This document shows, piece after piece, positions 2,780 to 63,730 of a stretch of DNA of 64,000 bases (positions are counted from its first letter, which is position 1; the number at the start of each line of letters is the position of its first letter). This stretch comes from Chiloscyllium plagiosum. Its lineage: Eukaryota. The stretch covers positions 39,844,872-39,908,871 of the forward strand of contig NC_057719.1 of the NCBI RefSeq assembly GCF_004010195.1. Direction: 5' to 3'. A model generated the notes under the pieces. It saw only the letters and a list, made by a program, of their open reading frames with translations. It ran no database searches and was not told the origin of the DNA. The translations under genes were made by a program, and so were the position numbers.

Positions 2780-3908
2780 TCACTGGACTCATAATTTACC
2801 TGGACCATCTCTGACACCTGCCTCCCCTTCCTGGACCTCTCCATCTCCATCAGTGACGACCGACTTGACACTGACATCTTCTACAAACCCACCGACTCCC
2901 ACAGCTACCTGGATTACACCTCTTCCCACCCTACCTCTTGCAAAAATGCCATCCCGTATTCCCAATTCCTCCGCCTCCGCCGTATCTGCTCCCAGGAGGA
3001 GCGGTTCCACCATAGAACACACCAGATGGCCTCCTTCTTTAGAGACCGCAATTTCCCTTCCCACGTGGTCAAAGATGCCCTCCAACGCATCTCATCCACA
3101 TCCCGCACCTCCGCCCTCAGACCCAACCCCTCCAACCGCAACAAGGACAGAACGCCCCTGGTGCCCACCTTCCACCCTACCAACCTTCGCATAAACCAAA
3201 TCATCCGCCAAGTGACCAGTAATCTCTCTCACTCATACCACTTGGCGTTGGCAACTGTTGGAAAGATTTAGTGGTTGATCCTTCACCTGTTGGACCACAC
3301 AATGGACACACGTTCTTTGGATGTTAGACCCTTCTGTAGGACTTGAAGCCACAGCCTCTGGCTCAGGGGAAGGGACATGACCCACTGCTAATGGGAGGTG
3401 GGAAGACCCATAGAAGAGGTTTACTGAATATCCTGCAGAGTTTCCTGGTGAGGCTGCTTTGAGTGGGATTCCCAATGATAGACGACTAGATTGCCAGGAG
3501 TAGAAGGTCTGAAAGTGCAGATTCTGGACAGTTTTGGTGGTGGGGTGGTGAATGAGTCATGGCAATTTTTCATCCTGGGACCTAGATTGTGGGGGTTGTG
3601 CATACAATACGAAGAATATTAAAATGAAGCCATGCAGCCTCATTGTAATGTTGAAATGACCAACACTCACGTGACTGAATTTTCCGTCTGCCTCTTGTTC
3701 TGCCTGCCTTGAAGAAGTTTTCCTCCCCACCCCCACCCTCCTCTAGCTTATCTCTCCACGCTTCAGGCTCTCTGCCTTTATTCCTGATGAAGGGCTTTTG
3801 CCCGAAACGTCGATTTTGCCTGTCCTCGGATGCTGCCTGAATTGCTGTGCTCTTCCAGCACCACTGATCCAGAATCTGGTTTCCAGCATCTGCAGTCATT
3901 GTTTTTAC
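2780..3908 (+). mobile_element. Composite Penelope-like insertion: RT/thumb fragment, non-PLE DNA, then PLE 3' end
   Basis: 2795-3211 translates FTWTISDTCLPFLDLSI...DIFYKPTDSHSYLDYTSSHPTSCKNAIPYSQFLRLRRICS (PLE RT C-terminal motifs). 16-bp TSD ctcataatagagagac at 2764-2779 and 3909-3924. Confidence 0.85.
3784..3811 (+). ncRNA. Minimal hammerhead ribozyme motif (PLE-associated)
   Basis: CTGATGA-A-GGGC-TTTT-GCCC-GAAA-CGTC: both catalytic core boxes, a 4-bp stem II, a short palindromic stem III and a GUC triplet. Confidence 0.8.
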
Positions 3909-5507
3909 CTCATAATAGAGAGACCCAGGGAATGTTCTAGGGACGTAGGTTCAGTTTTAAATTTAATAAAAATCTTAAATTAAAAGTAAAATGACCACGA
4001 ATCCAATTTCAATTCGTGTAAATCCCAATCTTGTTCATTAATGTCCTTTAGGGAAAGAAAACTGTAGCTCCTACTGGTCTGGCCTACATGTAACTCCATT
4101 GCCAAAGCAATGTGTTTGACTCTTAATTAATCTCTTAAAAGGCCTACCAAGCCAGACAGTTGTATCAACTGCTAAAAAGTCTCAAAAGGAAATCAAACCA
4201 ATGGCATCAACCTAAGTGCTGGAAGCAACAACATCAAACTGAGCTCCATCAACCCTGTAAAGCTTTCCTTACCGACTTTTAGGAGTAAGTGGTAAAATTT
4301 GGAGAACTGCCTTGCAGACTAGTTGAACTACAGACTGGTATAGCCATGCTCAAGAGTCTTACCTTCCACAATGACCCAAACAACAATATCATCATCCATG
4401 GATATGTCCTGTTCCACTGGATTAACAAAAAACAGCAGTTGCAGTGGCACTGTGTTATACAGCAGGGAATGATTTGCCCAGGGACTCTTCAACATGGACT
4501 GTGAATCCTATGAAGTCTCATGACATTGGATCAGAAATGGGCAAGGTAATTGCCTGCTGTTTACCATGTACAGCCCGCCTCAACTGATGAACCAGTACTC
4601 CTCCACGTTGAACACCACATTGAGCAAGTATGGAGGGTGACAGTGGTACAGAATGTACTCTGGGTGGAAAATTTTGTGCACCATGAAGAGTAGCTCGGCA
4701 GCATCATTGCTGATTAATCTAGTCGAATCCTAAAGGACACAGCTACAAGATTAGATCTGCAGAAGATGGTGGAAAAGATGTACTTGACCTTACCCTCACC
4801 AGTCTGCCTGCTGCAAATGCATTTGTTCATGACAGTATAAGTAAGAGTGACAACTGCACATTCTTTGGTGAGACCAAGTCCCATCTTTTCATTGAAGGAC
4901 TCCTCCATCATGTTGTGTGGCATTATCACTGTACTAAATGAGATAAACAAACAACTTGAGGCTGGGCATGATTTGCTGTGAGCCATTAGTGGCAGCAAAA
5001 TTGTACTTAAACATAATCTGCAACCTGAAGGCCTGACCTTTCCCTCATGTACCTAAAAATGAGGTACCAACCTGGTGAAGCTACAAAATAGAACTGCCTC
5101 TGTGTTTTAAACAGCAGAAGCAGCAAATGTTAGGGCTAAACGATTCCACCATCAACGCATCAGGCCTAAGCTCTGCAGTCCTGCTGCATCCAGGAATGAA
5201 TTATGGCATACGGTTAAATCACTGGAGGAGGGGGTGCTCCTTGTCCTCAATGTTATATCAAAAAGATAAGGCTGAAACATTTGTGACAAGGATCAGCTGC
5301 AAATGTCAAGTGGATGATTCAACTCTGCCTCTCTTCCAGATGTCACCAGCATTGCTGATGCCAGTCTTCAGCCAAATCGATTTGCTCCATGCGTTGTTGT
5401 GAAACAGCTGGAACATTGGATGCTGCAAAGGGTATATGTTCTGACAATAGTACTGAGGATGTATGTCCAGCACTTGCCACACCTCAAACCAGACGGTGTT
5501 CTAGTGC

Positions 5508-5847
5508 CTTGAATGTAGATTTATCCAGCTTCCTCATTTCCCCTCCCTCCTTTTTGTACTTATCTCAGTCCCAACCCCCGGATTCAGCACAGCCCTCTTG
5601 ACCTGTAATCTTCTTCCCAACCTCTCCGTCCCCACCCCGTCTCCGGCCTATCACCCTCACCTCCTTCCACCAATCATATTCCCAGTGCCCCTCCCCCAAA
5701 TTCCCTCCCCCCCCCTACCCTTTATCTTAGCTCACTTGGCACATCCACCTCATTCCTGAAGAAGGGCTTATGCCCGAAAAGTTGATTCTCCTGCTCCTCG
5801 GATGCTGCCTGGCCTGCTGTGTTTTTCCAGCACCACATTTTTCAACT
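5508..5847 (+). mobile_element. PLE 3' fragment with hammerhead motif at 5756-5783
   Basis: 12-bp TSD gtgttctagtgc at 5496-5507 and 5848-5859. Motif CTGAAGA-A-GGGC-TTAT-GCCC-GAAA-AGTT. Confidence 0.8.
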
Positions 5848-8800
5848 GTGTTCTAGTGCACTTACATCATGCATTCACCTGACAATGCGAAGAGTTGCCC
5901 TGGTATTTCCTGCACACAAAGTAGGACAACTCCAACTCTATTAATAATCACCTTATCAGTCTACTCTCAATTGCAGAAAAATGTTATGTCATCAACAGTA
6001 CACTTCTACAGCAATAACCTGCTCATAACACTCAATTTGGGTTCCACCAGAGCCACTCCCCTCCTGACCACATTAAAGCCTTAATTCAAATAGGTCAAAA
6101 GAATTGAATTCCAGAGGTGAGGTGAGAATGACTGCCCTTCACATCAAGGCCACATTTGACTAAGTGTGGCATCAAAGAGCCCTTGCAAAACATGAGTCAA
6201 TGGAATGGAGGTAAAACTCTCAGCTGGTTGGAGTCAAACTTAGCACAATGATGATTGTATGAGGTCACAATATCTATGCAGGAGTTCCTCAGCGTTTAAA
6301 CCCAACTATCTTCAGTTGCTTCATCTGTAAAGTTCCCTCCATCGTAAGGCCAGAGGTGGGGATGTTTGCTGCTGATTGTGCAATGTTTCGCACTGTTCAT
6401 GACTTTTCACATACTGGAGAGATCCATATCCAAATGCAATAGTATCAACATTTGAGCTTACAAGTAACTTTCATGCCACACACTGTCAGGCAATGACCAT
6501 CTCAAAAAGAGAAAATCCAACCATCACCCCTTGATATTCAATTACCATTGCTGAATCCCAATGTCTACGTCTTGGGGGTTCCCATTGACTTGAAATTGAA
6601 TTGGACTAGCCATATAAATACTTCAGATACAAGACCAGATAAGATACTAGAAATCCTGCAGTAAGTTGCTCTCATAATAACTCCCTAAAGTACATCCACT
6701 TTCTACAAGGCACAGGTCAGGAATATTCAATTTACCTGGTTGAGTACAGCTCCAACAACACGCAAGAAGCTTAACAACATTCAGGAAAAAGCATCTGGCT
6801 TGATTGGCAATACATCCATAAACATGCACTTCTGTCATTACCAAAACTCAGCAGCCATACATATAAGATATACTAGGAGAATTTGCCAAGGCTATTTAAG
6901 ACAGGACCTTTCAAGTGCATGACCACTGCTATCTAGAAGAATATGGGCAGTAGATACATGAGAACACCATCATCTGTAAGTTGCTCTTCAAGCCACTTAT
7001 TATTCTAACTTGGAAGTGTGTCACTGTTCCATACTTGCAATGGGTTAAAAGCCTGGAACTCCATCCCTAACAGCATTGTGAGTCCACCTACAGCAAATGA
7101 ACTGCAGCTGATCAAGAAGGTGGTAATAGTAATGAACCAGTGACTCCCATATTCCATTAATGAGCAGTAAAAACAAAATGACAAAATAATGTTTACTGCT
7201 GGTTTCAGACCATCATTCTGATAGGATCCCACTGTGATCTTCAATGAAGTTGGAGAAGGGACCGTCTAGAGATCCTGTCCTATCAGAATGATATCAGAGA
7301 TGATATTGGAATTTTAAATGTCAACTGAAGTTGGGTAGTTTGTTATCTATAATGTTAAACAACTTCAGTTAAGTTTAGGTCTGTGTTATTGTTGCCCTCC
7401 AGAAAATTTACATTCTCTTCTAATTTTTCCTAACGTATTTTTTTAAAAAGCTTGTAGATTTTCCACTGTAAACTGCAAAATGCTCGGGACAGCTTAAGCT
7501 TTGTTCATTGCAGAACTACCTAATTATAATATTAAAGATCTTGTGACTGCAAACACATTCCTTTTTGTACTTATTCCATATCATTATTACTTCATAATGT
7601 GAAACTAATTCTTAATCATATTGCATGTGTATTACAATAAATCTCCTTTGCCGATTCATTCTTTCAACTCTAGGTGGCACTGCCAACATTTTTTTCACAT
7701 TACTTCTGTCACATTAACTTGAATTGCTTTCTCCTCTAGAACAAGTTTAAAGGTATTAAAATAAATACAGACTGATCTAAAAGAACAATTTACAAACTAC
7801 TTATGGTCAAATATTTTGTATCCTCATATTTTCAAGATTTCTGCTATTTCAGTACCATACACAATTAACTAGCATGCTGCTATCACAGTTGCTGCAGAAT
7901 ACAGATTGGGAAATACATTTTAAATCTTAGAACCTGCGTTGATAGTTTATTTTTATTCTGAGGAGAGTTTGTCTCATAATTTTGCACTGTTGCTAAGTAG
8001 TTATTGTTCAACTATTTAAACTGCTTGTCACTTACAGTCCATCAAGAAATGAAGATCGAACTTGAACCACTAAAGGCTAAAATTTTTTAGAGCTGATAAA
8101 AATTAAACAATATGTTTCCAAATATAGGTGCAGACACCACATAAAATAAAAAAATGTTTGAATCTGTAACTTATTCTTTACTTTGGGGTGGGATTTTTTT
8201 CCTGCTGCATTCCTCACTTGTGCCTTGTAGATGGTGGGTGTGCTTTGGGCATGTCAATACGAGAGTTATTCATTGCAGGATTACTAACCTCTGATCTGCT
8301 CTTGTACCCACAGTACCTTGTATCCTCCTATCATTCTCAGTATTCTCTTTCTGTATACAAGTAAATCATGAAATTCCACATACACGTGTATAAATTTAGA
8401 GACAACTGTGAAACCCCAATCCCGTAGTTACTGATTGCAGAGTAGATTTTTTTTAGAACTGGACTTGGGATGCTACGACCTCCCTTTTCTCTTACAGACA
8501 AAAAGGAATCCTCCAATGACCAAAATCTCCTCTTTGCTAACCACAGCAACTAACTATAGTGCCTGAAAATTCAAGGACTAACTCTAGCACAACTAATTCC
8601 ACTTCCCATGTGGCATCTAGTATTCCTCAGGACAAAATCCCAGCGAAGGCACGAGAACATACAACATTGGTGGAATATGCTTTGGCAGTTGAACTTTGGA
8701 GATTCTATAATTGTACTGTGCAAGTAACCGTGTTTGGACAGTTTTAGTTTTGGCCAATGAGCATTTCTTTTAGAGTTGGTCATTTGGATCATCTTTGCAA

Positions 8801-13890: not shown

Positions 13891-14077
13891 TATGGAAATT
13901 GAAACTGCATTGTTGGTGTCACCCTGTATTGCAAACCAGCCATCAAGCCAACTAAGCTAACCAACCCCCTAACTTCTAAACATAAGGTTCATTTGGCTAA
14001 CTGTTTAAAATTAATGTACTAAATGTTCCTTCCAACTTTAAAATGTACACAGATTCGTTCTAAATCAGTTTTGGAAA

Positions 14078-14395
14078 TGACTTGGAGATGCCGCTGTTGG
14101 ACTGGGGTGTACAAAGTTAAAAATCACACAACACCAGGTTATAGTCCAACAGGTTTAATTGGAAGTACTAGCTTTCAGAAAATTGCTTCTTCATCAGGTG
14201 GTTGTGGAGTACACAATTATAAGACATAGAATTTATAGCAAAAGTTTACAATGTGATATAACTGAAATTATACATTGAAAAATACCTTGATTATTTGTTA
14301 AGTCTCTCATCTGTCAGAATGACCATGTTAGTTTCACTTCTTTCATATGTAAATCACAAAACTTTCTTAAAAGTTACATTCTCAGGTGAACTTAA
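14078..14395 (-). mobile_element. PLE 3' end (GAAAGCTA class) with hammerhead motif at 14169-14197
   Basis: Same family as 34593-34880. Minus strand reads CTGATGA-AGAA-GCAATT-TTCT-GAAA-GCTA. Confidence 0.75.
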
Positions 14396-14856: not shown

Positions 14857-15480
14857 GGTAAAGGACTTCAAGAGAACAGATTGCCTTTGGTCACCTATTC
14901 CACCAATGTTTAAATTCAGATCTTTAAGTAGTCCCTCAAGATCTAGGATGACTAGCCTTGCCCTGTGTTTTTTTTTGGACTTAACGGTCAGCTCAGAATC
15001 CAATGTGAAATCTGCAAACTCTACTACACGGGGAGCAGACTGTGCTTGAAGAGTTGAATAGATAAGTTGCCTGGAGGTTTGTATATTTTCTAACATCTTT
15101 GCGCAATCCTGAGAGTATTTTTGTATTAAAAAATTGGAACAGGAGTAGTCTATATGGCCCCCTGAACCTGCTCTGATCTAACTTTCCTGTGCTTTCCCCG
15201 TAAACCTTGATTTCCCTACTGATCAAGATTTGGTATCTTTCTGAATGCAACTTCTGTATTTTGGTCAATCATAAGCCAAGAACATCTGTGAGTTGGTGGA
15301 TATGTTTGACTGCAGAGAACATTGCTATTGGACTGCCTTTCTTGACACTGGTCATGAGAAGCTCATGCAAAGGCTTTCGCAGTGGTACTTCTCCAAAGAT
15401 AAAGTCTTCATACACGCAGAGGATCATAGGACTGCTCTCTCCTTAGAGAGAGATAATTAGTGGCAGTTTAACCTGAAAGT

Positions 15481-15710
15481 CGGAGATAGTAAGGACTGCA
15501 GATGATGGAAAGTCAGAGTTGATAAAACGTGGAGCCGGAAAAAGTACATCAGGTCAAGCAGCATCAGAAGAGCAGAAGAGTCGATATGTCAGGCAGGACA
15601 TTTCACCATGTCTTGCTGAAGGGCCCTGCTTGAAATGTTGACTCTCCTGCTCTTATGATGCTGTTTGACCTGCTGTGCTTTTTCTGGCTCCATGTTTATT
15701 TAACATTGAC
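15481..15710. mobile_element. Fold-back PLE-end insertion in a SINE
   Basis: Inverted arms. 14-bp TSD tttaac(c/t)tgaaagt at 15467-15480 and 15711-15724. Degenerate hammerhead near 15616-15640. Confidence 0.75.
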
Positions 15711-15984: not shown

Positions 15985-17645
15985 TTGTCATCTTGTACAC
16001 CTCTGTCAAGTCACCTCTCATCCTTTTTTGCTCCAATGAGAAAAGCCCTAGCTCCCTCAACCTTTCTTCATAATGCATACCCTCCAGTCCAGGCAGCGTC
16101 CTGGTAAATCTCTGCACCTTCGCTAAAGCTTCCACATCCTTCCTATAATGAGGTGACCAGAACTGAACACACTATTCCAAGTGTGGTTTAAATAGGGTTC
16201 TACAGAGCTGTAGCTAACCTTGTAGTTCTTAAACTCAATCCCCCTGCAAATGAAAGCCACCCTCCAATCATCTGGCACTACTCCAGTGAGGACCCAAAGG
16301 TCATTGCCAAAGGTTCAGCAATCTCTTCCCTCGCTTTAAGTAGACACCTTGGGTATATCCTGTCTGGCCCAGGGGACTTATCTATCCTTGTCTTTTTCAA
16401 ACTTTTCAGCATATCCTCCTCCTTAACATAAATCTGTTCGAGCAAATCAGCCTGTTTCATGTTGTCCTCACAAACGTCAAGGTCCCTCTCAGTGGTGAAT
16501 ACTGAAGCAAAGTAATCATTAATGACCTCCCCTACCTCCTCGGACTCAAGATGCAAGTTCCCTGCAGTATACCTGATCGGCCCTAACCTCACTCTGGCCA
16601 TCCTCTTGTTCATCACATAAGTATAGAATGCCTTAGGGTTTTCCTTAATCCTACCCACTAAAGCTTTTTCATGTCCCCTTCTAGTTCTCCTAAGCCCACT
16701 GGCTATAGTAAAGGTCAGGGAGTTGTGATCACCGTCACCAAAATGTTCTCCCACAGAGATCTGACAGCTGGCTTGGTTCATTGCCAAGCACCAAATCCAA
16801 AATGGCTTATCTCTCCACCCTTGAGGCTTCCTGCCTCTATTCTTGATGAAGGGCTTTTGCTTGAAACGTTGATATTCCTGCTCCTCAGATGCTGCCTGAC
16901 CTGCTCTGCTTTTCCAGCACCACTCTGATCTAAACTTCTCTCCCCTGCAGAAAACTCCTAATAAAGTGACTGCTCCTTTCATGTTTGTGACTTCCACCCA
17001 TATTGATCCTGTAGGCAAACCCTCCATGATGACGTCCCTTTCTGCAGCTGTGATACTATCCCTGATTAGCAATGTCACTCCCCCACCTCTTTTACCTCCC
17101 TCCCTATTCCTTTTGAAACATCTACACTCTGGAACATCCAACAACCATTCCTGTTGTTCTGATATCCAAGTCTCCGTAATGGCCCCAACATCATAGAACA
17201 TGGGTAAGTACTTGGAACTAAGTTCATCACCCTTATTCCTGATACTTTTTGCATTAAATAGACACGCTTCAACCCATCACACTGACTGTAGCTTTGCCCT
17301 ACCAACTGTCTATCCTTCGTCACAGACTCTTTGCATGCTGTATCTGGCTGTTCAGTAGCTACTTCATCCTCAGATCCAGAGCTCTGGCCCCCACCCCCTG
17401 CCAAACTAGTTTAAACCCAGCCGAAGAGTTCTAACAAACCTCCCGCCCAGGATATTGGTGCCCTCCAGTTCAGGTGCAACCCATCCTTGTACAGGTCCTA
17501 CCTTCCTCAGATGATCCACATATCTGAAGCCGTCCCTCCTATACCAGCCCTGCAGCCACCTGTTCATTTGCACTTGCTCTCTGTTCCTAGTATCATTAGC
17601 CCATGGCACTGGCAGCAATCCTGAGATTACGACTCTGCTATTCAT
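15985..17645 (-). mobile_element. Internally deleted CR1 (ORF1 esterase end, endonuclease, RT pieces) containing a PLE 3' end at about 16805-16935
   Basis: SRVVISGLLPVP (ORF1), YDVGAITETW, GDHNSL and DKSPGPDRIYPR motifs. Confidence 0.88.
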
Positions 17646-18332: not shown

Positions 18333-18396
18333 GAGAAAGAGAAGTTCATACACTCCCGCCTAAAGGCAAAAGGAATAGGATTAAGAGATGAGGAAG
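18333..18396 (+). CDS. COA8: COA8 coding exon (probably exon 3)
   Basis: ttccag|GAG...GAAG|gtgagt. 64 nt, EKEKFIHSRLKAKGIGLRDEE+G. Phase 0 in, phase 1 out, consistent with both neighbours. Confidence 0.93.
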
Positions 18397-20572
18397 GTGA
18401 GTAAACCATAACCTTAATTTTTATTTCAATTAGGTACCTATACATATTTTTTAATTTCTTGCAATATCGTTGTAAAATATTGTCTCTAAGAAATATAAAT
18501 AAACAGGTTTGTGCAGTAATTCTACTTAGATTATTGTGAATATATATAAAATGTTGACATTGAGGAGTGTGCATCACTGAATATTCTTTAGAGTGTTTGA
18601 GTGTTCTTGGCCTTTAGTTTTAAAGATCCCTTGTTACCATGTTTTTAAAACTATTGAAGAAACTCCAACCTTATGTAGAACTTTCACTGTGAAGGGAGAT
18701 GATGTGCACAGAACTTAATATCACTGAAGGTAAAGTACTATACATGACTGATGGCAATGTCTTTCAACATTTACAAATTTTAGTATTTTTTCATCCACCT
18801 GCAGATTATTTAAATTGATGCCACTTGAATTACAAATCCTGCTCATAAATTCCTTATTTAAACATCAGAACTCAATTTGGCCAATAACAACTCTTATCTC
18901 ATAACACCTGTGATATTATGGCATTAGAGGTTGGACACTGACATCAAGTAATCTACTTTGCTAGTGTGTGTGTTTTTGGACTGAATTAACTCAATACCAA
19001 GAATCTGTTTTGCTCTCTGGCAACAGGTAGTAGCTTTGCGTGACATTGAAGCATTGGTCCTCCTTTTCAGCTTTTCAAATTTAGTATTATCTAGTTTTTT
19101 TTTTAGTGATCTCCACTAGCTTTCCAGCCACAAATCCTATTTTAAATGCTATTCTATAGCTGGCCACAAGGAGATGTGCAAGTGTTTTTTCGGCTGATCT
19201 GTGATCTTTTTCTGCACTTCCCCTCTGTGGAGCAATGTTGTGTGTCAATACCTGTGATATTAGTAATCCCAGTTGGGAATTCCAGGCATCAATGGCTTCA
19301 TATATTAAAGCTCCAGGGCACCAAGGAGTGAATGTTTATTATTAATAGTTCATGGAATGTGAGCGTTGCTGAATAGGCCAGCATTTAATGCCTATCCTTA
19401 ATTGTTCTTGAAGTTAGTGGTGAGCTGCTTGCTTGAATTGCTGCAGGTCATGAGTATCCACAGTGCCATTAAGAAGGTATTTAACCCAGTAGTAGCAAAA
19501 TAATTATATATTTCCAAGTTATGATGGAAGTTGGGAGAGGAACTTGCAATTAGTGGAGTTTTCATGCATTTGCTGCCCTTGTTGGAATGTGTACTGAAGC
19601 AGCCTTGATAGGTTGCTCCATAATCTTGTTGATGGTACATACTGTTGCCACTGTGCATCTGTGGTGAAGGAAGTAAAAGTTTTGCAACTGTGGTTGCACT
19701 GCTAGTGAAATGCTGTTTTGTGTTTGAACGTTGTTGAAGGCAAATGAAGAATATTCCATCATACTCCTGATATGTCTTTGAGGATGGTAGACCAACTCTG
19801 GTGTATCAGGAATTAAGTTGCTCGCTACAGAATTCCTAGTCTCTGACTTGGTCTTATGGCCACAGTATTTATATGGCTTATCCATTTTAGTTTCTTGTTA
19901 ATGGCAACCCACAGAATGTTGATAAGATAGGAGGAATTTTATAGAGGCTTTGGAAGGTAGGGTATAGCTTTTAAGTTGAATTGTATGAGCTAGGAATATT
20001 TTTCATTGAGCTGAAAATTTGAAATACTTTAGATTTATCAGTTGTGCCCTGGCCTTTTTTTTATTGTGATACTTCAGTTCAGTGGAAATTTTATGGAGCA
20101 AAAAACAGTTTACTTTTCTAGTAATATGCTGCATTTGTATTCAATTCTCTAATTTTATGTTGTATCACATTAGAACATGGAGTCAGAAATTTGCCATTAG
20201 ATATCATTTTGACTGATATCATGCCTGTGCAGCTGGAACCATCTACTCTTTTCTCATTTCTCTGACCTTTCCTTATGTCTATATATTATACATTATATTT
20301 ATATTTTAATTAAATACATGTGTTGCAGATTATTCCTGACTGAATTGTTTATGTTGAAGCATATTCTAATAAACCTCTTAAAACATTTCTTCTGATCTTT
20401 TGTTCTTTCTTTTTAATTGATGATCTTAGTTCTGGTTCATGTTTACAATTTTCCATTACGTGTGATGCAAAAATTCATATCTCTCAGTAAAGAAATTAGA
20501 ATGTGAGAAAGCTGACTAGGCTGCATTGACATACTTGTGGTTCTGCTTGCCGAGCTGGAAGTTTTTGTTGCA

Positions 20573-20606
20573 AACGTTTCGTCCCCTGGCTAGGCGACAT
20601 CATCAG
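20573..20606 (-). ncRNA. Minimal hammerhead ribozyme motif, left arm
   Basis: Reverse complement of the motif at 21365-21398. Confidence 0.75.
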
Positions 20607-21364
20607 TGCTTGGGAGCCTCCTGCGAAGCGCTTCTTTGATGTTTCCTCCGGTGTTTATAGTGGTCAGTCCCTGCAGCTTCCGGTTGTCAGTTTCAGCTGT
20701 CCGCTGTAGTGGTTGGTATATTGGGTCCAGGTCGATGTGTTTGTTGATGGAGTTTGTGGATGAATGCCATGCCTCTAGGAATTCCCTGGCTGTTCTCTGT
20801 CTGGCTTGCCCTATGATAGTAGTGTTGTCCCAGTCGAATTCATGTTGCTTGTTGTCTGCGTGTGTGGCTATTAAGGATAGCTGGTCGTGTCGTTTCGTAG
20901 CTAGTTGATGTTCATGTATGCGGATTGTTAGCTGTCTTCCTGTTTGTCCTATATAGTGTTTTGTGCAGTCCTTGCATGGTATTTTGTACACTACATTCGT
21001 ATATATAGGACAAACACTATATAGGACAAACAGGAAGACAGCTAACAATCCGCATACATGAACATCAACTAGCCACGAAATGACACGACCAGCTATCCTT
21101 AATAGCCACACACGCAGACAACAAGCAACATGAATTCGACTGGGACAACACTACTATCATAGGGCAAGCCAGACAGAACAGCCAGGGAATTCCTAGAGGC
21201 ATGGCATTCATCCACAAACTCCATCAACAAACACATCGACCTGGACCCAATATACCAACCACTACAGCGGACAGCTGAAACTGACAACCGGAAGCGGCAG
21301 GGACAGACCACTATAAACACCGGAGGAAACATCAAAGAAGCGCTTCGCAGGAGGCTCCCAAGCA

Positions 21365-21398
21365 CTGATGATGTCGCCTAGCCAGGGGACGAAACGTT
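21365..21398 (+). ncRNA. Minimal hammerhead ribozyme motif, right arm
   Basis: gca-CTGATGA-T-GTCGCCT-AGCC-AGGGGAC-GAAA-CGTT-tgc: core boxes, stem II with one G.G mismatch, AAACGTTT palindrome and a 3-bp stem I. Confidence 0.75.
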
Positions 21399-22118
21399 TG
21401 CAACAAAAACTTCCAGCTCGGCGAACAGAACCACAACAACGAGCACCCGAGCTACAAATCTTCGCACAAACTTTGAACAATTGACATACTTATTGTGTGG
21501 CATGAGGAAGTCTAGATCTTGGTTAGTTAACACCAATTTGGAACAGTGCATCTGAATGGGAAGGAGTTTTAAAATAATTTCAGTTGTTATACAAATGTAG
21601 TTTTTTTTACAAAAATCTAAATTTTTTTCAAAACTGTGATGCACTATTGAAAGGTTCAGCCTGAATACAAGGACCTCTGAATTTGGTCATCTCGGGGGGG
21701 AAAACTACCTTTTAACAACAGTGAGAACATGTTTATGTGTCTTTATAGTTAGCAATGTGTGAAGAAAATTGTAGGTATTCATCTGCATTGAAATGTGATT
21801 GCTGAGAATGATATTCATTGAATTGTATAATTAGACAAAAACTGTTATTTCTATTTGAAAACCAAACTTTTCCTGATACCAAAGAACAGACAAGTGTAAA
21901 ATGAATCAATTTCTTATGTTTTTTATATCTTTTTGCTTGTGTTCAGTAAAATACTCAGCTAAGAATAAATTATAACTGGAATGCCATTCTGCTTCTAGTT
22001 CTTAAATATCTACAAGATGCTTTTTACTCAAGGCAGCTTCATTTAATAGCAGCTGATCATATAAGTTTATATCTTAGACAGTGCTTATGATTTTAATTGG
22101 TGATATTATATTTTTCAG

Positions 22119-22209
22119 GGAGAAAAAATACTCTCAGTGCAGAAGAGATGGCTGAATTTTATAAGGATTTTCTTGATGTAAATTATAATAAACATGTGAA
22201 CTATAATAA
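22119..22209 (+). CDS. COA8: COA8 coding exon (probably exon 4)
   Basis: tttttcag|GG...AA|gtaagt. 91 nt, (G)[29 protein letters not shown]. Phase 1 in, phase 2 out. Confidence 0.93.
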
Positions 22210-23029
22210 GTAAGTCAACCTACTGATTAAATTTTAAATAGTGTAAGCAATGTTTAAATATTTGATTTTATTAAGAGGGCTACAAATTAATTGGCAGTGT
22301 GGTATGAAACAAAGAACTGCGGATGCTGGAGATCTGAAACAAAAGCAGAAATTGCTGGAAAAACTCAGCAGGTCTGGCAACATTTGTGGGAAGAAAACAG
22401 AGTTAATGTTTCAAGTCCGGTAACTCTATATCAGAACTTAGTGTAGTCTGCTGTGTTTGAGAAGTAATTTATTCTCAGACATAAAAAATAATGTTAGTGT
22501 GATTATTTCTGTAAGTTGTATACCACTATAGCTATGTACATATAGCAAATTAAAATAAATAATCTCTTGCTTTACAATGTATAAACTTCCCTACCAATAT
22601 TGAGATCTGATCAATAAATCTGATGGTTTTAGGTAGAACATATATGTAGTATTGCAACATTACATTCATAAGTGAAGGAGAAAACTGACCAGAAATTTTA
22701 AAGATGCCCTGTTCACTTTTTTCCCCTAAAGTACATTGTAGTGAGGTGAATAATAGCTAAATGAAAATGGAGAGGCTAATAAAAACAGATTTAAAGTTTG
22801 AGATTCTGATCAAAGTTCTTCATTTTATCCTCACCTTTATCAAGGTATTATTATTGTCAACAGGTTGAAATCAAACCATTTATATATTGCTGGACAGAAA
22901 GGAAATTGCTGAAATACATTGCTCAACATTGTAATACTCTGAAGTTTCATGCCTAAATTAGGTATAACTTTATAACCTAGTGAATGTTGTCAAATGAATA
23001 AGTCACTTTTTCCATGTTTCTTCAATTAG

Positions 23030-23132
23030 GGAATGGTACAAGCGTAATTTTACTATCACATGGTTAATGGGTCGAGTTGTGCTGCAGAATGCCTGGAGGA
23101 AACTGAGAAAGAGGAAGGAAGTCGAACAATGA
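23030..23132 (+). CDS. COA8: COA8 last coding exon
   Basis: ttcaattag|G then (K)EWYKRNFTITWLMGRVVLQNAWRKLRKRKEVEQ and TGA at 23130-23132. Matches the COA8 WYKRNF C-terminal motif. Confidence 0.93.
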
Positions 23133-27698: not shown

Positions 27699-27803
27699 AC
27701 TCCTTCTGCCTTCATCAATCTTCTTTGTCACTGGAAAAAATTCAATCAAGTTAGTGACACACAATTTCCCAAGCACAAAGCCATGTGGACAATTCCTAAT
27801 GAG

Positions 27804-27944
27804 GTAAAAACGATGACTGCGGATGCTGAAAACCAGATTCTGGATCAGTGGTGATGGAAGAGCACAGCAATTCAGGCAGCATCCGACGAGCTGCTCATCG
27901 GATGCTGCCTGAATTGCTGTGCTCTTCCAGCACCACTGATCCAG
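27804..27944. mobile_element. Miniature fold-back PLE-end insertion
   Basis: 13-bp TSD aattcctaatgag at 27791-27803 and 27945-27957. Near-perfect hairpin 27837-27947; sequence matches the PLE end at 3826-3910. Confidence 0.88.
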
Positions 27945-28999: not shown

Positions 29000-29178
29000 A
29001 TAGATGCTGGAAATCAGAAACAAAAACAGAAATTGCTGGAAAAAAATCAGCAGGTCTGGCAACGTCTGTTCTTGCGTTCGGAAGAAGGGTCACCGGACCC
29101 GAAACGTTAACTGTTTTCTTTCTACCGATGCTACCAGACCTGCTGAGTTTTTTCCAGCAATTTCTATTTTTGTTTCCA
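29000..29178. mobile_element. Fold-back PLE-end element with hammerhead-like motif at 29079-29108
   Basis: Inverted arms gaaacaaaaacagaaattgctgg / ccagcaatttctatttttgtttc. Motif CGGAAGA-A-GGGTC-ACCG-GACCC-GAAA-CGTT. Related single ends at about 22305-22435, 26078-26205 and 39185-39285. Confidence 0.75.
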
Positions 29179-37644: not shown

Positions 37645-37739
37645 TGGGTATTAAAGAAAGCAAATGAAATGTTGACTTTTATTTCAAATGCAGTGGAGTA
37701 TAAAATATCTTGCTAAAACTGGACTAGACCATATGTAAT

Positions 37740-41774: not shown

Positions 41775-44465
41775 CTATCAGCTATCTGTAAGAATAATAG
41801 GGTGGTTATGGTAGGGGATTTTAACTTTCCAAACATAGACTGGGACTGCCGCAGTGTTAGGGGGTTAGATGGAGAGGAATTGAAGTGTGTACAAGAAAAT
41901 TTTCTGATGCAGTATGTGGATGTACCTATTAGAGAAGGTGCAAAACTTTACCTACTCTTGGGAAATAAGGCAGGGCAGGTGACTGAGGTGTCAGTGGGGA
42001 GCACTTTGGGGCCAGCGACCATAATACTATTAGATTTAAAATAGTGATGGAAAAGGATAAACCACATCTAAAAGTTGAATTTCTAAATTGGAGAAAGGTC
42101 AATTTTGATGGTATTAGGCAAGAACTTTTGAAAACTGCTTGGTGCCAGATGTTTGCAGGTAAAGGGACAGCTAGAAAATGGGAAGCCTTCAGAAATGAGA
42201 TAACGAGCATCCAGAGAAAGTATATTCCTGTTAGGGTGAAAGGGATAGGGAATGCTGGATGACTAAAGAAATTGAGGGTTTGGTTAAGAAAAAGAAGGAA
42301 GCATATGTAAGGTATAGACAGGATAGATCGAGTGAATCCTTAGAAGAATATAAAGGAAGAATGAGTATACTTAAGAGGGAAATCAGGAGGGCAAAACAGG
42401 GACATGAGATAGCTTTGGCAAATAGAATTAAGGAGAATCCAAAGGGTTTTTACAAATATATTAAGGAGAAAAGGGTAACTAGGGAGAGAATAGGGCCACT
42501 CAAAGATCAACTAGGAGAAAGTGAGGACTGCAGACGCTGGAGTACCAGAGTTGAAAAGAAGGGCTTATGCCCGAAATGTCGATTCTCACACCCTTCAAAG
42601 AACAGCAAGGCGGCCTTTGTGTGGAGCCGCAGAAAATGGCAGAATACTAAACGAGTATTTTGCATCAGCATTTACTGTGGAAAAGGATATGGAAGATATA
42701 GAAAGTAGCAAAATAAATGGTGATGCCTTGCAAAATGTCCATATGACAGAGGAGGAAGTGTTGGATGTCTTGAAATGCATAAAGGTGGAAAAATCCCCAG
42801 GACCTGATCAGGTGTACCCTAGAACTCTGGGAAGCTAGAGAAGTGATTGCTGAGATATTTGTATCATCGATAGTCACAGGTGAGGTGCCAGAAGACTGGA
42901 GGTTGGCTAACGTGGTGCCACTCTTTAAGGGTGGTAAGGACAAGCCAGCGAACTATAGACCAGCGAGCCTGATGTCGATGGTGGGCAAGTTGTTGGAGGG
43001 AATCCTGAGGGACAGGATATACATGTCTTTGGAAAGGCAAAGTCTGATTAGGGATAGTCAACATGGCTTTGTGCATGGGAAATCATGTCTCTCAAACTTG
43101 ATTGAGTTTTTTGAAGAAGTAACAAAGAGGATTAATGAGGGCAGAGCGGTAGATGTGATCTATATGGACTTCAGTAAGGTGTTCGACTAGGTTCCCCATG
43201 GGAGACTGATTAGTAAGGTTAGATCTCACAATACAGGGAGGACTAGCTATTAGGATACAGAACTGGCTCAAAGGTAGAAGACAGAGGGTGGTGGTGGAGG
43301 ATTGTTTTTCAGACTGGAGGCCTGTGACCAATGTAGTGCCACAAGGGTCGGTTCTGGGTCCTCTATTTTTTTGTCATTTACATAAATGATTCGGATGCGA
43401 GCATAAGAGGTATGGTTAGTAAGTTTGCAGATGACACCAAAACTAGAGGTGTAGTGGACAGTGAAGAAGGTTACCTCAGATTACAACAGGATCTGAGAAT
43501 GGGCAGAGGAGTGGCAGATGGAGTTTAATTCAGATAACTGTGAGTTGCTGCATTTTGGGAAAGCAAATTTTAGCAGGACTTATACGCTGAATGGTAAGGT
43601 CCTAGAGAGTGTTGCTGAACAAAAAGACCTTGGAGTGCAGGTTCATAGCTCCTTGAAAGTGGAGTCGCAGGTCGATAGAATGGTGAAGAAGGCATTTCGC
43701 ATGCATTCTTTTATTGGTCAGAGTATTGAGTACAGGAGTTGGGACGTCATGTTGCGGCTTTACAGGACATTGGTTAGGCCACTGTTGGAATATTGCATGC
43801 AATTCTGGTCTCTTTCCTGTCGGAAAGATGTTGTGAAACTTGAAAGGGTTCAGAAAAGATTGACAAGGACATTGCAAGTGTTGGAGGATTTGAGCTATAA
43901 GGAGAAGCTGAACAGGCTGGGGCTGTTTCCCTGGAGCATCGGAGACTGAGGGGTGACCTTATAGAGATTTACAAAATTGAGGGGCATGGATAGGGTAAAT
44001 AGACAAAGTCTTTTCCCTGGGGTGGAGGAGTGCAGACAGGGAGAGGCTGAACAGGCTGGGGCTGTTTTCCATGAAGCGTTGGAGGCTGAGGGGTGACCTT
44101 ATAGAGATTTACAAAATTGAGGGGCATGGATAGGGTAAATAGACAAAGTCTTTTCCCTGGGGTGGAGGAGTGCAGAACTAGAGGGCATAAGATTAGGGTG
44201 AGAGGGGAAAGATATAAAAGGGACCTAAGGGGCAACCTTTTCACACAGGATGGTACGTGTATGGAATGAGCTGCCAGAGGAAGTGGAGGAGGCTGGTACA
44301 ATTGCAACATTTAAGAGGCATTTGGATGGGTATATGAATAGGAGGTTTGGAGGGATATGGGCCAGGTGCTGGCAGGTGGGACTAGATTGGGTTTGGATAT
44401 CTGGTTGGCATGGACGGGTTGGACCGAAGGGTCTGTTTCCATGCTGTAATCTCTATGACTCTCTC
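41775..44465 (+). mobile_element. CR1 LINE ORF2 (part of endonuclease, RT, 3' UTR), disrupted
   Basis: VVMVGDFNFPNIDW, KSPGPD, VPEDWRLANVVPLFK, SQHGF..GKSCL.NL, FADDTK and ctctatgactct tail. 139-bp tandem duplication at about 43897-44176. Confidence 0.95.
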
Positions 44466-51460: not shown

Positions 51461-51868
51461 ACCCTGAAGATGCCTAGATGAACTCTACATTGTTGGGGAA
51501 GTAGATCCTCCACAAGGAGTAACTGGAGTAAATGTTCAGGACTACTGGTCAATCTGTGACAGATGGCCCCCTGTCAGAGGAGCTCCAGTGCTCAGCTCCT
51601 CTACCTGGGAGTCTATCTTGCCAACTTACTAGCCAGAATTCCTTGGCATGGCAAAGATGGACTCCCAAGATGAAAAAATAGTTGTAATTCTTGCATTTGT
51701 GTTGCCCGTGTTTGATTTATTTTTGTGATTGTAAAACGGTCTTCAGATTTTTGCTAACAAAATACTAATTGTTTTAAATATGCATTTTGAACGCATTGTA
51801 TGTAAAGCCTTCATGTTTCTCTTTTCATGGTCGGATAACACTGTTTAAATGATGTGAATCTTGGTTTA

Positions 51869-52770
51869 TAAAGTTAAAAATCACAACACCAGGTTATTGT
51901 TCAGCAGGTTCATTTGGAAGTACAAGCCATTGGACCACTTCCTTTGACCAGTACCTAGTGGGGCAGGATCATAGGACACAATTTATAATAAAAAATCAAT
52001 ATACCTGTAATGCAAATTCACCCCATAGATGTGTATGTGTGTACTTGATAGTGTGTGTGAGAGTGTGACAGAGTGTATGTCTGAGAGAGAGTGTGTGTGT
52101 GAGAGTGAGTGTAGGCATGTGTCTCAGAGAGAGCGTGTGTATGAGGGTCTGCGTGAGCGTGTGAGAGAGATCATGTATAAGAGTATGTGTGAGAGTTGTG
52201 TATAGTGTGGTGGGGTTCATGTCACACTACAGGTGACTCAAGATCCTGGTTGAGGCCATTCTCGTGGGTACTGAACTTGGCTATTAGCATTTGCAGGTAC
52301 ATTTTATTTTGTTCAAAAAGCGCACAACCTGCAGGCAGTCAGTCCATGTGACATTTTATAAATTCCTACTTTGGAAATAGAACCAGTCTGACTCATGGTT
52401 GGAATACAGACAGACTCTAACCTCATTGTTTGAGCTGAGATGTCACCTTTTTTTAATAAAACCTTAGGTTATCTCAAGAATGTGACTTGAAAGAAGTTCT
52501 GGAATTTACATATTAATGAATCGAAACCTGCAACCCATTCTATGTGATTAAAACTTAACAGCAATCTAGGTTTGTTCAACACATTGCATCAATTAATGAC
52601 ACTTTGATTTTTTTACTATAAATTCTGTCTTCTATGATCCTGCTCCACTCGCTACCTGACGAAGGAGCACTGCCCCGAAATTTGTACTTCCAAATAAACC
52701 TGTTGGACCATAATCTGTTGTTGTGTGATTTTTAATTTTGCCCATCCCAGTCCAACACTGACTCCTCCAC
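51869..52770. mobile_element. Fold-back PLE insertion (family of 34593-35740) with hammerhead motif at 52656-52684
   Basis: 11-bp TSD atcttggttta at 51858-51868 and 52771-52781. Inverted ends aaagttaaaaatcaca / tgtgatttttaatttt. TG-rich tract at 52030-52210. Confidence 0.82.
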
Positions 52771-52920
52771 ATCTTGGTTTACAAAAAAAAAGTGCCAATG
52801 TTACATGTTGTATGGTGGCCAGGATAACTAAATAATTTCAGTGATTCAATCTGATGAGTCAATTTTCAGTACATAAACTACATAAAATTTGCAAGTCAAA
52901 CCCAAGTACTGATTACATTT

Positions 52921-53817
52921 AGGAGAAAGTGAAGACTGCAGATGCTGGAGATGATGTGGTGCTGGTCAGGTAGCATCTGAAGATTGAGGCTTGTGAAACA
53001 AGGGGTGGGGCAATAAATGGGAGGGTGGTGGGGCTGGGAGGAAGGTAGCTGAGATTGCAATGGGTAGATGAAGGTGGGAGTAATGGTGGATAGATCGGAG
53101 AGGAGGGTGGAGCAGCTTGGTGGGAAGGAAGATGGACATATCATGAGGGCGGTGCTGGTTTGGAAGGTTGGATCTGGGATAAGATGGCGGGGGAGGGGAA
53201 ATGAAGAAACTGGTGAAATCCACATTGATGCAGTGTTGTTGGAGGGTCCCAAGGCGGAAGATGAGGTGGTTAAGGTGTGGTGACGGAGGAGACCCAGGAC
53301 GTGAGTGTCTGTGAAGTGGGAGGGGGAGTTGAAGTGTTTGGCCACTGGGCAGTAACCAACCCCACTGTCCCGTGGCCAACCACTTCAACTCCCCCTCCCA
53401 TTCCGCAGACATGCACATCCTGGGCCTCCTCCATGGACACTTGGAGGAAGAACGCCTCATCTTCCGCCTGGGAACCCTCCAACCACACTGTATCAATGTG
53501 GATTTCACCAGGTTCCTCATTTTCCCCCTCACTACCCCACCTTATCCCAGATCCAACTTTACAACCTCGCACTACCCTCATGACCTGTCCTACCTGTCCA
53601 TCTTCCTTAACAACTGTCTGCTCTGACCTATCACTATTAATCCCAGCTTCATCTACCTATCGAGCTCCTAGCTACCATCCCCCCCACCCCCCTCCCATTA
53701 TCTCTCCACCCACTCTCAAGCCCATTTCTGATGAAGGGCTTTTGCCCGAAACGTTGATTCTCCTGCTCTTCGGTTGCTGCCTGACCTGCTGTGCTTTTCC
53801 AGCACCACATTCTCAAC
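52921..53817. mobile_element. Fold-back PLE insertion
   Basis: 14-bp TSD tactgattacattt at 52907-52920 and 53818-53831. Divergent HFNSPSH remnants on both strands meet at about 53350. Confidence 0.88.
53728..53755 (+). ncRNA. Minimal hammerhead ribozyme motif
   Basis: CTGATGA-A-GGGC-TTTT-GCCC-GAAA-CGTT. Confidence 0.78.
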
Positions 53818-54289
53818 TACTGATTACATTTGCCAGGTTGCAGATCAAGCATTTTTTAAAAAACGATTTTTTTCTATTCCTTCAGTTCAGAGATATCGTT
53901 GCACATGTCTGGAGCAGATGGGACTTGAACCCAGCTCTCTCAGGACTAGGGATGCTACCAATGCACCACAATAGGGCCCCTATTTTTGGTGGACCTTAGC
54001 ACTGAACCCTCTCAGACAATTTATGCTTAAATGAGGTAAAGGAGCTTCACTCCTATGTGCTAAAAATTGCTGAGTTTTTCCAAGCACTAGCATTATCTTA
54101 TTTCCAGTTGATGCACTCTTCAAAGCTTTAACTAATCTAATAGTCTGTCAAAGTATCGATTTCTATTTTTAACTTAAATTTCTTTGTTGCTGTCGTATAT
54201 TTTTGTCTCTCTAGCTCTGTCTTGTGGTAATATTAATTATTTATTTTACTTGATAGGAATATTGGCAAACATACCCTCTAAGTACATGG

Positions 54290-62273: not shown

Positions 62274-62534
62274 ATGTATGACACCATGTCCACAATGGTG
62301 TATTTAAAGGAAGATAAACTGGAAAAGCTGTCACAAGAAGAGATTATTGGCAAGACAAAGCAAGTGATCCAAGGACTTGAAGCCTTAAAAAATGAGCACA
62401 ACTCTATTTTGCATAGCCTGCTGGAAACCCTGAAATGTCTTAAGAAAGATGATGAGATGAACTTGGTTGAAGAGAAATCCAACATGATCCGCAAGTCTCT
62501 GGAAATGTTAGAACTTGGTCTCAGTGAGGCACAG
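62274..62534 (+). CDS. KLC1: Kinesin light chain 1, first coding exon (gene continues beyond the window)
   Basis: Acceptor ttttttttag|G at 62273, ATG at 62274, donor CAG|gtaaac. 87 aa MYDTMSTMVYLKEDKLEKLSQEEIIGKTKQVIQGLEALKNEHNSIL...LELGLSEAQ, near-identical to the remembered vertebrate KLC1 N-terminus. Syntenic with COA8. Confidence 0.96.
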
Positions 62535-62814: not shown

Positions 62815-63490
62815 TGTAAGAAAGTGGAGTCGCAGTTAGGTAGGATAGTGAAGAAGGTGTTTGGTATGCTTTCCTTTATTAGCCAGAGTATTGAGTACCG
62901 GAGTTGGGAGGTCATGTTGTGACTGTACAGGACATTGGTTCGGCCACTGTTGGAATATTGCTTGCAATTCTGGTCTCCTTCCTATTAGAATGATGTTGTG
63001 AAACTCGAAAGGATTCAGAAAAGATTTACAAGGATGTTGCCAGAGTTGGAGGATTTGAACTATAGGGAGAGGTTGACTAGGCTGTTTCCCTTGAGCGTCG
63101 GAGGCTGAGGGGTGACCTTATAGAGGTGTATAAAATCATGAGGGGCATGGATAGGATAAAGAGACAAAGTCTTTTCCCTGATGTGGCAGAGTCCAGAACT
63201 AGAGGGCATAGGTTTAGGGTGAGAGGGAAAAGATATAAAAGAGACCGAAGGGGCAACGTTTTCATGCTGAGGGTAGTATGTGTATAGAATGAGCTGCCAG
63301 AGGAAGTGGTGGAAGCTTGTACAATTGCAACATTTAAAAGGCATTTGGATGGATATATGAAGAGGAAGGGATTGGAGAGAAATGGGGGCCACATGCTGGC
63401 AGGTGGGACTAGATTGGATTGGGATATTTGGTCGGCATGGATGAGTTGGACCGAAGTGTCTATTTCCATGCTGTACATCTCTATGATTCT
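62815..63490 (+). mobile_element. CR1 3' fragment in a KLC1 intron
   Basis: Same family as 1-623 and 43640-44465. Confidence 0.9.
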
Positions 63491-63594
63491 TTTGCTGTTA
63501 AAACTCACCATGGCATGCTACTGAAACACAAGAATCATGAAAACCTTAAAACTGATTCACTCAGCATACAGCTTAACGAGGTGCAAGAGAAACA

Positions 63595-63730
63595 TACTCC
63601 TGATGAAGAGCTTATGCTCAAATCGTTGATTCTCCTGCTCCTCGGATGCTGTTTGACCAGCTGTGCTTTTCCAGCACCATACTTTTTTTTTTGACTCTGA
63701 TCATGCATCTGTAGTCCTTTTACTTCCTCT
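63595..63730 (+). mobile_element. PLE 3' end with decayed hammerhead at 63600-63627
   Basis: CTGATGA-A-GAGC-TTAT-GCTC-AAAT-CGTT followed by the common ctcctgctcctcggatgctg block. Confidence 0.75.

Follow-up and report, generated by a model that had tools for sequence, protein, structure and literature searches.

Minimal hammerhead ribozymes have been described in Penelope-like elements (PLEs) of metazoans, and in the available text of that study monomers showed no self-cleavage and dimers weak self-cleavage (PMC4209133). For the Poseidon element PAc of the green anole, the accessible part of the report states that the motif needs the element's own protein and that RNA-seq data contain no ends at the site (PMC11167929). 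In frogs, dimers were inactive in eight out of nine cases according to the available portion of a preprint, which also reports non-LTR retrozyme hammerheads to be scarcer in introns (bioRxiv 10.64898/2026.07.22.740005). In-vitro work leaves it unclear whether such motifs cut in the cell, and the pilot strand test presented below leans to yes without settling the matter.

The stretch of DNA studied here, called the window throughout, comprises 64,000 nucleotides of the genome of the shark Chiloscyllium plagiosum. All 19 hammerhead sites cited in the original prediction are minimal type I motifs on the pLTR ends of 5'-truncated PLEs, and they come from at least three PLE lineages with GIY-YIG remnants; the proposal of at least three PLE families carrying minimal type I hammerheads was thus borne out, families A, B and C each being tied to GIY-YIG frames. 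This kind of element is already known, and the copies described here are new members of it. We consider it very probable that the motifs are terminal-repeat hammerheads of at least three shark PLE lineages, truncated or head-to-head, decaying and most likely inert, a reading that draws on the observed anatomy, the link between reverse transcriptase (RT) and GIY-YIG frames, covariation, copy number, target-site duplications (TSDs) and CpG-led decay.

The lineage is clearest for family A, in which a telomerase-like RT shares one frame upstream of the pLTR with a C-terminal GIY-YIG domain, whereas families B and C have GIY-YIG remnants only. At loci of subfamily A1, frames with RT-YIDD, a CxxC linker and GIY-YIG stop 200-600 nt upstream of the A1 motif. 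The window itself holds a C-terminal RT fragment of the family A lineage (2795..3210, +), separate from the stub at 3784; genome-wide it gave 65,191 first-look candidates, 150 of which were scored, and at loci found with it one frame runs from the YIDD RT motif to the GIY-YIG domain and is followed by an A1 hammerhead. Relatives of family A combine RVT_1 and GIY-YIG, the nearest named ones being from Chiloscyllium punctatum (91-93%). The GIY-YIG remnant of family B matches a shark PLE protein at 38% (E=5e-12), and that of family C scores E=0.029 for the domain and matches a shark PLE protein at 43%. Unlike these three, families D and E have no ORF tied to the motif. The CxxC linker occurs in families A and B, and for family C its examination covered one short frame; the labels Poseidon-like and Neptune-like denote absence and presence of this linker rather than positions in an RT tree. 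All 11 candidate long frames are broken by N gaps or do not represent full elements, and tandem pLTRs were not seen directly because assembly gaps left no gap-free full-length element.

The nine cores listed as intact in the original prediction were confirmed by direct reading in letters, coordinates and strand, but only five of them (3784, 20573, 21365, 34654 and 53728) pass a strict test that demands a full core, a stem II of at least 3 bp, a palindromic stem III and an N17 other than G. The stem III palindrome is lost at 5756 (AAGU) and at 37806 (ACAU), where the first stem I pair is also broken; in 52656 stem II is broken and the cut site carries a G; and stem II of 14169 pairs only in a shifted register. 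The core CUGANGA ... GAAA ... UH is present in type I order in the window motifs. A core descriptor with a stem II of at least 3 bp found eight sites in the window against a mean of 0.79 (maximum 3) in 100 dinucleotide shuffles of the window, and six against 0.30 when at least 4 bp were demanded, so that the comparison with shuffled sequence, proposed as a check at the outset, came out in favour of the motifs. Family profiles gave 25 matches, i.e., 21 with a ribozyme region and four tail-only arms; they recovered all 19 cited sites and two additional motif-bearing copies, at 26075(+) and 51853(-). An Rfam scan of the window at E up to 10 returned no hammerhead family among its 23 matches; minimal motifs of this kind are not covered by the curated models. 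Rfam microRNA matches at 20862-21112 were rejected, as they arise from the inverted insertion there. None of the 12 rows of a tandem-repeat scan of the window crosses a motif, whereas a non-LTR retrozyme would have a hammerhead in every repeat unit.

Eight of the cited sites lie within introns of COA8, whose exons were placed at 934..1131 (+; Pfam COA8 PF10231, E=1e-20; AG/GT ends), 18333..18396 (+), 22119..22209 (+) and 23030..23131 (+; the last coding exon, stop included). The small exon at 18333..18396, a frame-compatible AG..GT exon reading EKEKFIHSRLKAKG, probably belongs to COA8, judging by the exon layout of that gene. The first intronic copy is a solo A1 stub in sense orientation (3774..3923, +) with a strict-intact core at 3784-3811. 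Cleavage of that core is predicted after 3811. An A2 stub follows (5748..5884, +; core 5756-5783) whose insertion is flanked by a 12-bp TSD at 5496 and 5848, and then a family B stub antisense to COA8 (14070..14208, -), in which the core at 14169-14197 is intact and stem II decayed. A decayed head-to-head family A pair (15471..15709) combines a broken motif near 15616(+) with a tail-only arm on the minus strand, and a family A stub at 16834..16931 (+) has C3 and stem II mutated. Next comes a head-to-head insertion of the Poseidon-like family C (20525..21491) with two GIY-YIG C-termini, inverted arms of 262+166 nt at 98-99% identity, strict-intact hammerheads at 20573-20606(-) and 21365-21398(+), and a 12-bp TSD beginning ATT at 20525 and 21480. 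A family D stub with a broken core (22311..22444, -) is the last of the COA8 copies. Between the genes lie the additional family D stub, also broken (26075..26174, +), head-to-head family A tails without ribozyme and with a 13-bp TSD (27792..27957), and a head-to-head family D pair (28985..29179) bordering a CpG island, its 29079(+) motif carrying U4 -> G.

This CpG island (29001..30500, +; CpG o/e 0.80-1.12) probably represents the KLC1 promoter and non-coding exon 1, although RNA reads of four runs did not make exon 1 clear, one run yielding contigs at 29755-29947. If exon 1 is inside the island, the nine sites from 34654 to 53728 would be in KLC1 intron 1. The placement of most motifs in COA8 and KLC1 introns, as originally claimed, therefore stands for the eight COA8 sites and is conditional for these nine. 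They comprise a family B element end antisense to KLC1 (34560..35781, -), with a strict-intact hammerhead at 34654-34682, a GIY-YIG remnant with CxxC linker at 35452-35781 and a CA-rich 3' region; outward-facing family A copies, both broken, at 36685(-) and 37519(+) (36621..37651); a head-to-head A2 insertion with an 11-bp TSD (37729..38314), in which 38180(+) has A13 changed and 37806 is on the minus strand; a family D stub with a broken core (39185..39291, -); a family A fragment that lost its 5' core, within a CR1-type LINE remnant (42556..42587, +); outward-facing family B copies (51853..52788), of which 52656(+) had been cited; and a family A stub in sense orientation (53721..53828, +) with a strict-intact core at 53728-53755. 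The pairs 20573/21365 and 37806/38180 are each a single head-to-head insertion with a TSD and not independent copies. The last site, 63600, belongs to a family A stub that lost G12 (63595..63720, +), sense in a KLC1 intron after the first coding exon (62274..62534, +); an exon downstream of the latter best matches human KLC1 structures (E=6e-52).

That structure rather than sequence is conserved, as the original prediction held, is supported by covariation of stems I-III: the modal letters of nine (sub)families pair at 73/81 positions against 44.2 in shuffles, and none of 20,000 shuffles reached that value, which is no true probability since the families are mutually related, while the result is partly circular for stem II, whose pairing belonged to the recruiting patterns. 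For the three deep lineages alone, 23/27 pairs form against 14.0 in shuffles. Pairs were counted by structural position, since a MAFFT alignment across families displaced family B by one column. In each of the nine (sub)families stem II begins with G10.1-Y11.1 after one extra base and the first two helix I pairs are formed, pair 2.1-1.1 being C-G, A-U or U-A and pair 2.2-1.2 U-A, A-U or C-G depending on the family. The modal stem III palindrome is ACGU or AGCU in eight of the nine, that of the old family D being CpG-decayed. Alignment folding within families gave no common distal helix I beyond 2-4 proximal pairs. Folds of single family C copies suggest a possible distal helix.

Three exact family patterns match 91,539 times genome-wide (57,385 for A, 20,827 for B and 13,327 for C), reversed-pattern controls giving none, and the window is therefore an ordinary sample. 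With 21 copies where other introns would lead one to expect 14, its motif density is raised about 1.5-fold, and therefore the locus is not special; the motifs are expected PLE cargo, so it says little about COA8 or KLC1. 5' truncation, an inverted copy, an optional tail and a TSD were all found among the copies, and arms of outward-facing pairs make up 194 of the 340 matches in the main intronic sample. After insertion, decay is CpG-led: G12 -> A occurs in 62 of 325 intronic copies, the two single transitions of the stem III CpG are equally frequent (60 and 60 of 287), and 7,113 otherwise perfect copies carry this G12 change. Non-CpG change amounts to 2-3% in the core and 5-6% in the tail. We reject this difference as evidence that the core is conserved after insertion, because the tail value includes subfamily differences and copies were retained only if the core aligned.

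By analogy with described PLEs, the 4-base palindrome (ACGU or AGCU) would let two copies in the element's tandem transcript pair and so form stem III, and published work on other PLEs suggests that the dimer would cut after N17, an activity for which the element's protein is probably required. Reverse transcription is likely to start some 60 or 100 bases downstream from the cut and may often halt on reaching the motif's 5' edge; this would explain why many stubs consist of little beyond ribozyme and tail. Selection on the structure would then act on replicating master elements and not on inserted copies. It is quite unlikely, in our judgement, that the fold is instead kept for a non-catalytic role such as protein binding or a reverse-transcription stop, with cutting incidental. 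In line with such a role, 5' ends of family A pile up at the motif's 5' edge (27/136 at -36 to -29) rather than at the cut site (4/136 at 0 to +4), but some of these apparent ends may stem from missing upstream reference. From the available parts of two reports, insertion in vitro by the anole element is unaffected in core mutants (PMC11167929) and PLEs of the Naiad type do well although they lack the motif (PMC8557442), but the same anole report describes a motif that cuts with the protein and core mutants that are inactive. Furthermore, while the stems of the nine (sub)families change, all of them retain the letters of the catalytic core, an N17 that can be cleaved and the palindrome for dimer formation.

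Three strict-intact copies (3784, 21365 and 53728) are on the sense strand of COA8 or KLC1, and sense copies had been suggested to pair in cis and cleave. This is not supported. In the predicted fold, all 34 core bases of 21365 are paired to its inverted twin in a long hairpin, and such predicted hairpins in the window bury 34/34 and 28/29 core bases; 53728 has no compatible partner close by, its nearest sense neighbour, 52656, being broken and of another family; and the sole same-intron partner of matching type for 3784 is the mutated 5756, 1,972 nt away, with three of four stem III pairs. All computed active-site folds are less stable than two separate monomers by at least 16 kcal/mol, in dimer folding that covered one of the two sites and left out tertiary contacts. 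Of two single-cell poly(A) runs over 3600-5950, one gave 1,814 reads and the other none, with no pile-up of ends, but fragmented 3' libraries like these, which may derive from a related species and of which 2% was read, are unsuited to a test of cleavage. The copies in COA8 and KLC1 are most likely inert. That the host co-opted motif pairs in these introns as cis-acting dimeric ribozymes tuning expression is highly improbable: the three strict-intact sense copies and the shared intron and stem I type of 3784 and 5756 would suit it, but no same-intron sense pair combines a full stem III with a stem I, 21365 is buried in its predicted hairpin, density and decay in the window are like those in other introns, and nothing distinguishes these copies from the more than 90,000 others in the genome.

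A separate matter is whether intact copies elsewhere cut weakly when transcribed in sense, in trans with other copies or aided by the element's protein, so that selection thins them genome-wide. This is compatible with a PLE origin but not with inert copies, and we hold it to be rather unlikely. Across 1.50 Mb of intragenic DNA of assigned strand, taken from other introns, intact motifs numbered 27 sense to 48 antisense against 171:164 for all other copies (Fisher p=0.021; 27/75 alone, p=0.02), solo intact copies 6:21 against 74:77 for other solos (p=0.011; 6/27 alone, p=0.006), and copies with stem I also demanded 21:43 (p=0.008, or 0.002 by unit sign-flip), the stricter definitions having been picked after the data were seen. 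Such a sense-strand scarcity is unexpected for fully inert copies. The lean is antisense in 13 genes and sense in two, strand remains significant in a logistic model with tail age (p=0.013), and controls are even (CR1-type LINE ends 76:66, LINE RT 49:46, SINE 69:67), all of which favours weak cutting, as does a hammerhead engineered into a fish intron, which can cut mRNA up to 20-fold (PMC11856399). The sense depletion proposed as a check is therefore seen overall, but not in the second sample alone (344 kb; seven intact copies, 4:3), and young non-intact solos lean antisense too (6:11), with full-length point-mutated solos balanced (26:26). If removal occurred at insertion, the bias should persist in old copies as well. 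Moreover, non-CpG core changes are equal across strands (2.2% vs 2.7%), the sense excess of G12 loss over all families (35/149 vs 27/165) is not significant (p=0.12), and splice-acceptor-like and AATAAA-like words in the tails could alone give a strand bias. Transcription-linked A>G mutation was rejected as its cause, core A changes being equal (5/390 vs 8/460). We therefore regard the scarcity as a weak hint that some copies may still cut, and as a lead only. A genome with some 100,000 or more catalytically intact hammerheads, of which sense intronic ones cut and selection removes about half, and up to three quarters of solo sense copies, seems to us rather unlikely; if true, it would show at the population level that the minimal hammerheads of PLEs work in vivo beyond their element, a question left open since 2014. 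Tens of thousands of near-identical copies give the power to address in vivo cutting by counting alone. Our search of openly accessible papers, their supplements aside, brought up none that treats hammerheads of shark PLEs or the strand bias of these motifs in introns.

Compared with described systems, and as far as their available texts go, the copies studied here share with the motifs of Cervera and De la Pena 2014 (PMC4209133) the type I layout, the extra base between A9 and 10.1, G10.1-Y11.1, a short helix I, the palindromic 15.2-16.2, several families per genome, and mostly solo truncated copies with some close opposite-strand pairs. They differ in helix I, which has a length of just 2-4 bp and lacks a firm distal helix, and in their host, sharks not being named in the available text, and the 91,539 exact matches to three patterns are at least 10 times the approximately 4,000 and 9,000 of coelacanth and Xenopus, although methods differ. 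The non-LTR retrozymes (bioRxiv 10.64898/2026.07.22.740005) likewise have PLE-derived type I hammerheads, with one chondrichthyan reported, but the window is without tandem arrays of motif units, and the accessible part of that study does not split intronic copies by strand, unlike here. PAc (PMC11167929) shares the C-terminal GIY-YIG, the pLTR hammerhead and two 3' ends defining the tail, and has ATT at its target, where the family C TSD also begins ATT; activity, protein dependence and start sites were measured for PAc and are inferred here. Closest in insertion anatomy are the complex insertions of EN+ PLEs (PMC8557442), with an inverted 5'-truncated copy and a 30-40 bp tail: from the available text nothing material differs, the arms here often being ribozyme and tail only, and both have head-to-head arms, one of them longer-tailed, 5' truncation and assembly gaps at full elements.

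The nine hammerhead cores cited in the original prediction were all found at their positions when the sequence was re-read, and the motif observation is confirmed, with corrections. A descriptor search for CUGANGA, stem II and GAAA returned 8 sites in the window with at least three stem II pairs; the mean over 100 dinucleotide-shuffled versions was 0.79. Profiles of six families, seeded with natural copies, matched all 19 cited sites and six more places, of which two hold decayed motifs and four are arms with the tail alone, detection being slightly favored by the inclusion of window copies among the seeds. Among the 21 window copies with a ribozyme region, 5 are strictly intact (full core, stem II of at least 3 bp, palindromic stem III, N17 not G), 2 have the core but a lost stem III palindrome, and the remaining 14 are broken; an Rfam scan of the window gave no hammerhead match.

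The exons of COA8 lie at 934-1131, 18333-18396, 22119-22209 and 23030-23131 and the first coding exon of KLC1 starts at 62274, all on the plus strand, with a putative KLC1 promoter in the CpG island at 29001-30500, for which RNA reads gave thin support. Introns of COA8 contain eight of the cited sites and the inferred first intron of KLC1 nine; of the other two, one is at the edge of the island and one in the KLC1 intron that follows. A COA8 intron also holds an 825-nt inverted repeat (9751-10575 vs. 12784-13608, 100% identity, enclosing ca. 2.2 kb) that contains a CR1-type LINE fragment and either arose by inverted duplication very recently or is an artefact of assembly. An assembly gap (446 N) occurs within a LINE remnant at 45837-46282, and a tRNA-type SINE at 27510-27760 has 136 matches in the intron sample with no strand bias.

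The paired structure (stems I, II and III) is, as had been claimed, kept across families: for the commonest letters of nine (sub)families, 73 of 81 pairs form against 44.2 when the 3′ partners are shuffled among families, a result partly circular through the recruiting patterns. For the three deep lineages alone this is 23 of 27 against 14.0. Stem I, to which the original prediction did not refer, covaries too (A: C-G/U-A; B: C-G/A-U/C-G; C: A-U/C-G/G-C), and this is less circular because stem II formed part of the recruiting patterns. By eye, the stem II loop AGCC of the family C copy at 21345-21398 could pair with GGCU ca. 10 nt before the core and so might form a tertiary brace; pairing of GGCU with AGAC, the other common variant of this loop, has one mismatch.

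A Penelope-like element (PLE) origin of the hammerheads is supported by the carrier sequences. In family A, at loci found by searching with the window's own RT fragment, frames with a YIDD RT motif, a CxxC linker and a GIY-YIG domain stop 200-600 nt upstream of the motifs of subfamily A1. Many of its 108 relatives carry RVT_1 and GIY-YIG, and Chiloscyllium punctatum is the source of the named ones closest to the element protein (91-93% identity). In family B the motif at 34654 is preceded, at a distance of 770 nt, by a GIY-YIG remnant that shares 38% identity with a shark PLE protein, and in family C the GIY-YIG frame (20590-21150) extends into the hammerhead motif itself. Such links were obtained for families A, B and C and for neither D nor E, and no gap-free full-length element was recovered. 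Arms of outward-facing pairs comprise 194 of the 340 matches in the main intron sample, and TSDs in the window are 11-13 bp at four sites, shorter and at chance level at three, and lacking at two. Of 136 family A 5′ ends, 27 cluster shortly before the core, at -36 to -29 relative to the cut site, and just 4 fall at that site; the 3′ ends of this family lie near +55-66 or +92-100, the latter range being partly limited by reference length.

Exact patterns matched 57,385 (A), 20,827 (B) and 13,327 (C) times in the 3.56 Gb genome, together one per 39 kb, and control patterns 0 times. Other intragenic DNA (1.50 Mb) held 410 copies, of which 334 include the ribozyme region and 75 are intact; the window holds 25 copies (17 predicted), 21 with the ribozyme region (14 predicted) and 5 intact (3 predicted). 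Hammerhead numbering, the catalytic role of G12 and the NUH rule are textbook knowledge. Decay occurs chiefly at CpGs, including that on the catalytic G12, a position changed in 7,113 family A copies that are perfect elsewhere. Selection therefore maintains the structure in the masters that replicate, and the inserted copies drift.

The original prediction further held that sense copies might pair in cis and cleave COA8 and KLC1 pre-mRNA. A dimer requires an identical stem III palindrome and a compatible stem I. The strictly intact sense copies are 3784, 21365 and 53728. Neither 3784 with 21365 nor 21365 with 53728 forms a stem I; 53728 with 52656 forms none or two pairs, on a broken core; 3784 and 53728 are compatible but lie in separate genes; and 3784 with 5756, 1,972 nt apart, forms three of four stem III pairs. 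No suitable same-intron partner was thus found, and 21365 is placed in a hairpin by a fold prediction that pairs all 34 of its core bases with an inverted twin. The modelled active folds, for one site and without tertiary terms, were all much less stable than the monomers. Cis-cleavage at the COA8/KLC1 locus is not supported. Published assays agree: minimal PLE hammerheads showed no monomer and low dimer cleavage (PMC4209133), cleavage of an anole element was protein-dependent (PMC11167929) and one of nine frog dimers was active (bioRxiv 10.64898/2026.07.22.740005).

Cutting would predict fewer intact motifs on the sense strand of introns, and this proposed test gave a mixed outcome. In both sample sets the gene strand was assigned from domain matches and not annotation. 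The main set comprised 35 intervals (1.22 Mb) of DNA lying between same-strand exon matches of WD40 and EGF genes and had 23 sense and 45 antisense intact copies against 141 and 131 others (Fisher p = 0.010; sign-flip by gene, p = 0.007). The deficit held in both sets combined (27 vs. 48; intact solos, i.e., lone stubs, 6 vs. 21) but not in the second set alone (4 vs. 3). That set comprised 65 stretches (0.34 Mb) surrounding WD40, Sushi and LDL-A exons and may hold some non-genic or duplicated sequence. Although the combined ratio, with LINE and SINE controls even between strands, is what intronic cutting would leave, we consider this explanation improbable and a lead only: young non-intact solos lean likewise (6 sense vs. 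11 antisense), older point-mutated solos are even (26 vs. 26), no site-specific excess is significant, and the strictly intact copies of the window itself are 3 sense and 2 antisense. The numbers are also small, several definitions were tried, and tail signals might produce a strand bias unaided. Long family A tails (3880-3912 in the window and two more stretches) terminate in a branch-point-like word followed by a pyrimidine run, as at an intron 3′ end; such tails could add cryptic acceptors on the sense strand and so confound the test. Among the loci searched, a very long one-strand run of near-equal calcium-binding EGF exons (G000:C19:5671503-5988709), either an unusually expanded fibrillin-like gene or a tandem array, dominates the 150 best matches, and the top-scoring LDL-receptor class A locus (G000:C2:132065000-132317000) is a large exon cluster in repeated blocks.

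Our literature search found no publication on the PLE hammerheads of sharks or on a bias of these between strands, and supplements might list shark elements; a 2026 preprint reports retrozymes derived from PLEs in a single chondrichthyan and, for frogs, depletion in introns (bioRxiv 10.64898/2026.07.22.740005). The shark insertions show the published PLE pattern of 5′ truncation, outward-facing arms and TSDs (PMC8557442). By eye, an ATG at the start of stem II in the family C copy opens a frame across the tail (21373-21480), which resembles the anole PLE whose ORF begins within its hammerhead (PMC11167929). Finally, the shark motifs show every feature of minimal PLE hammerheads listed in PMC4209133.
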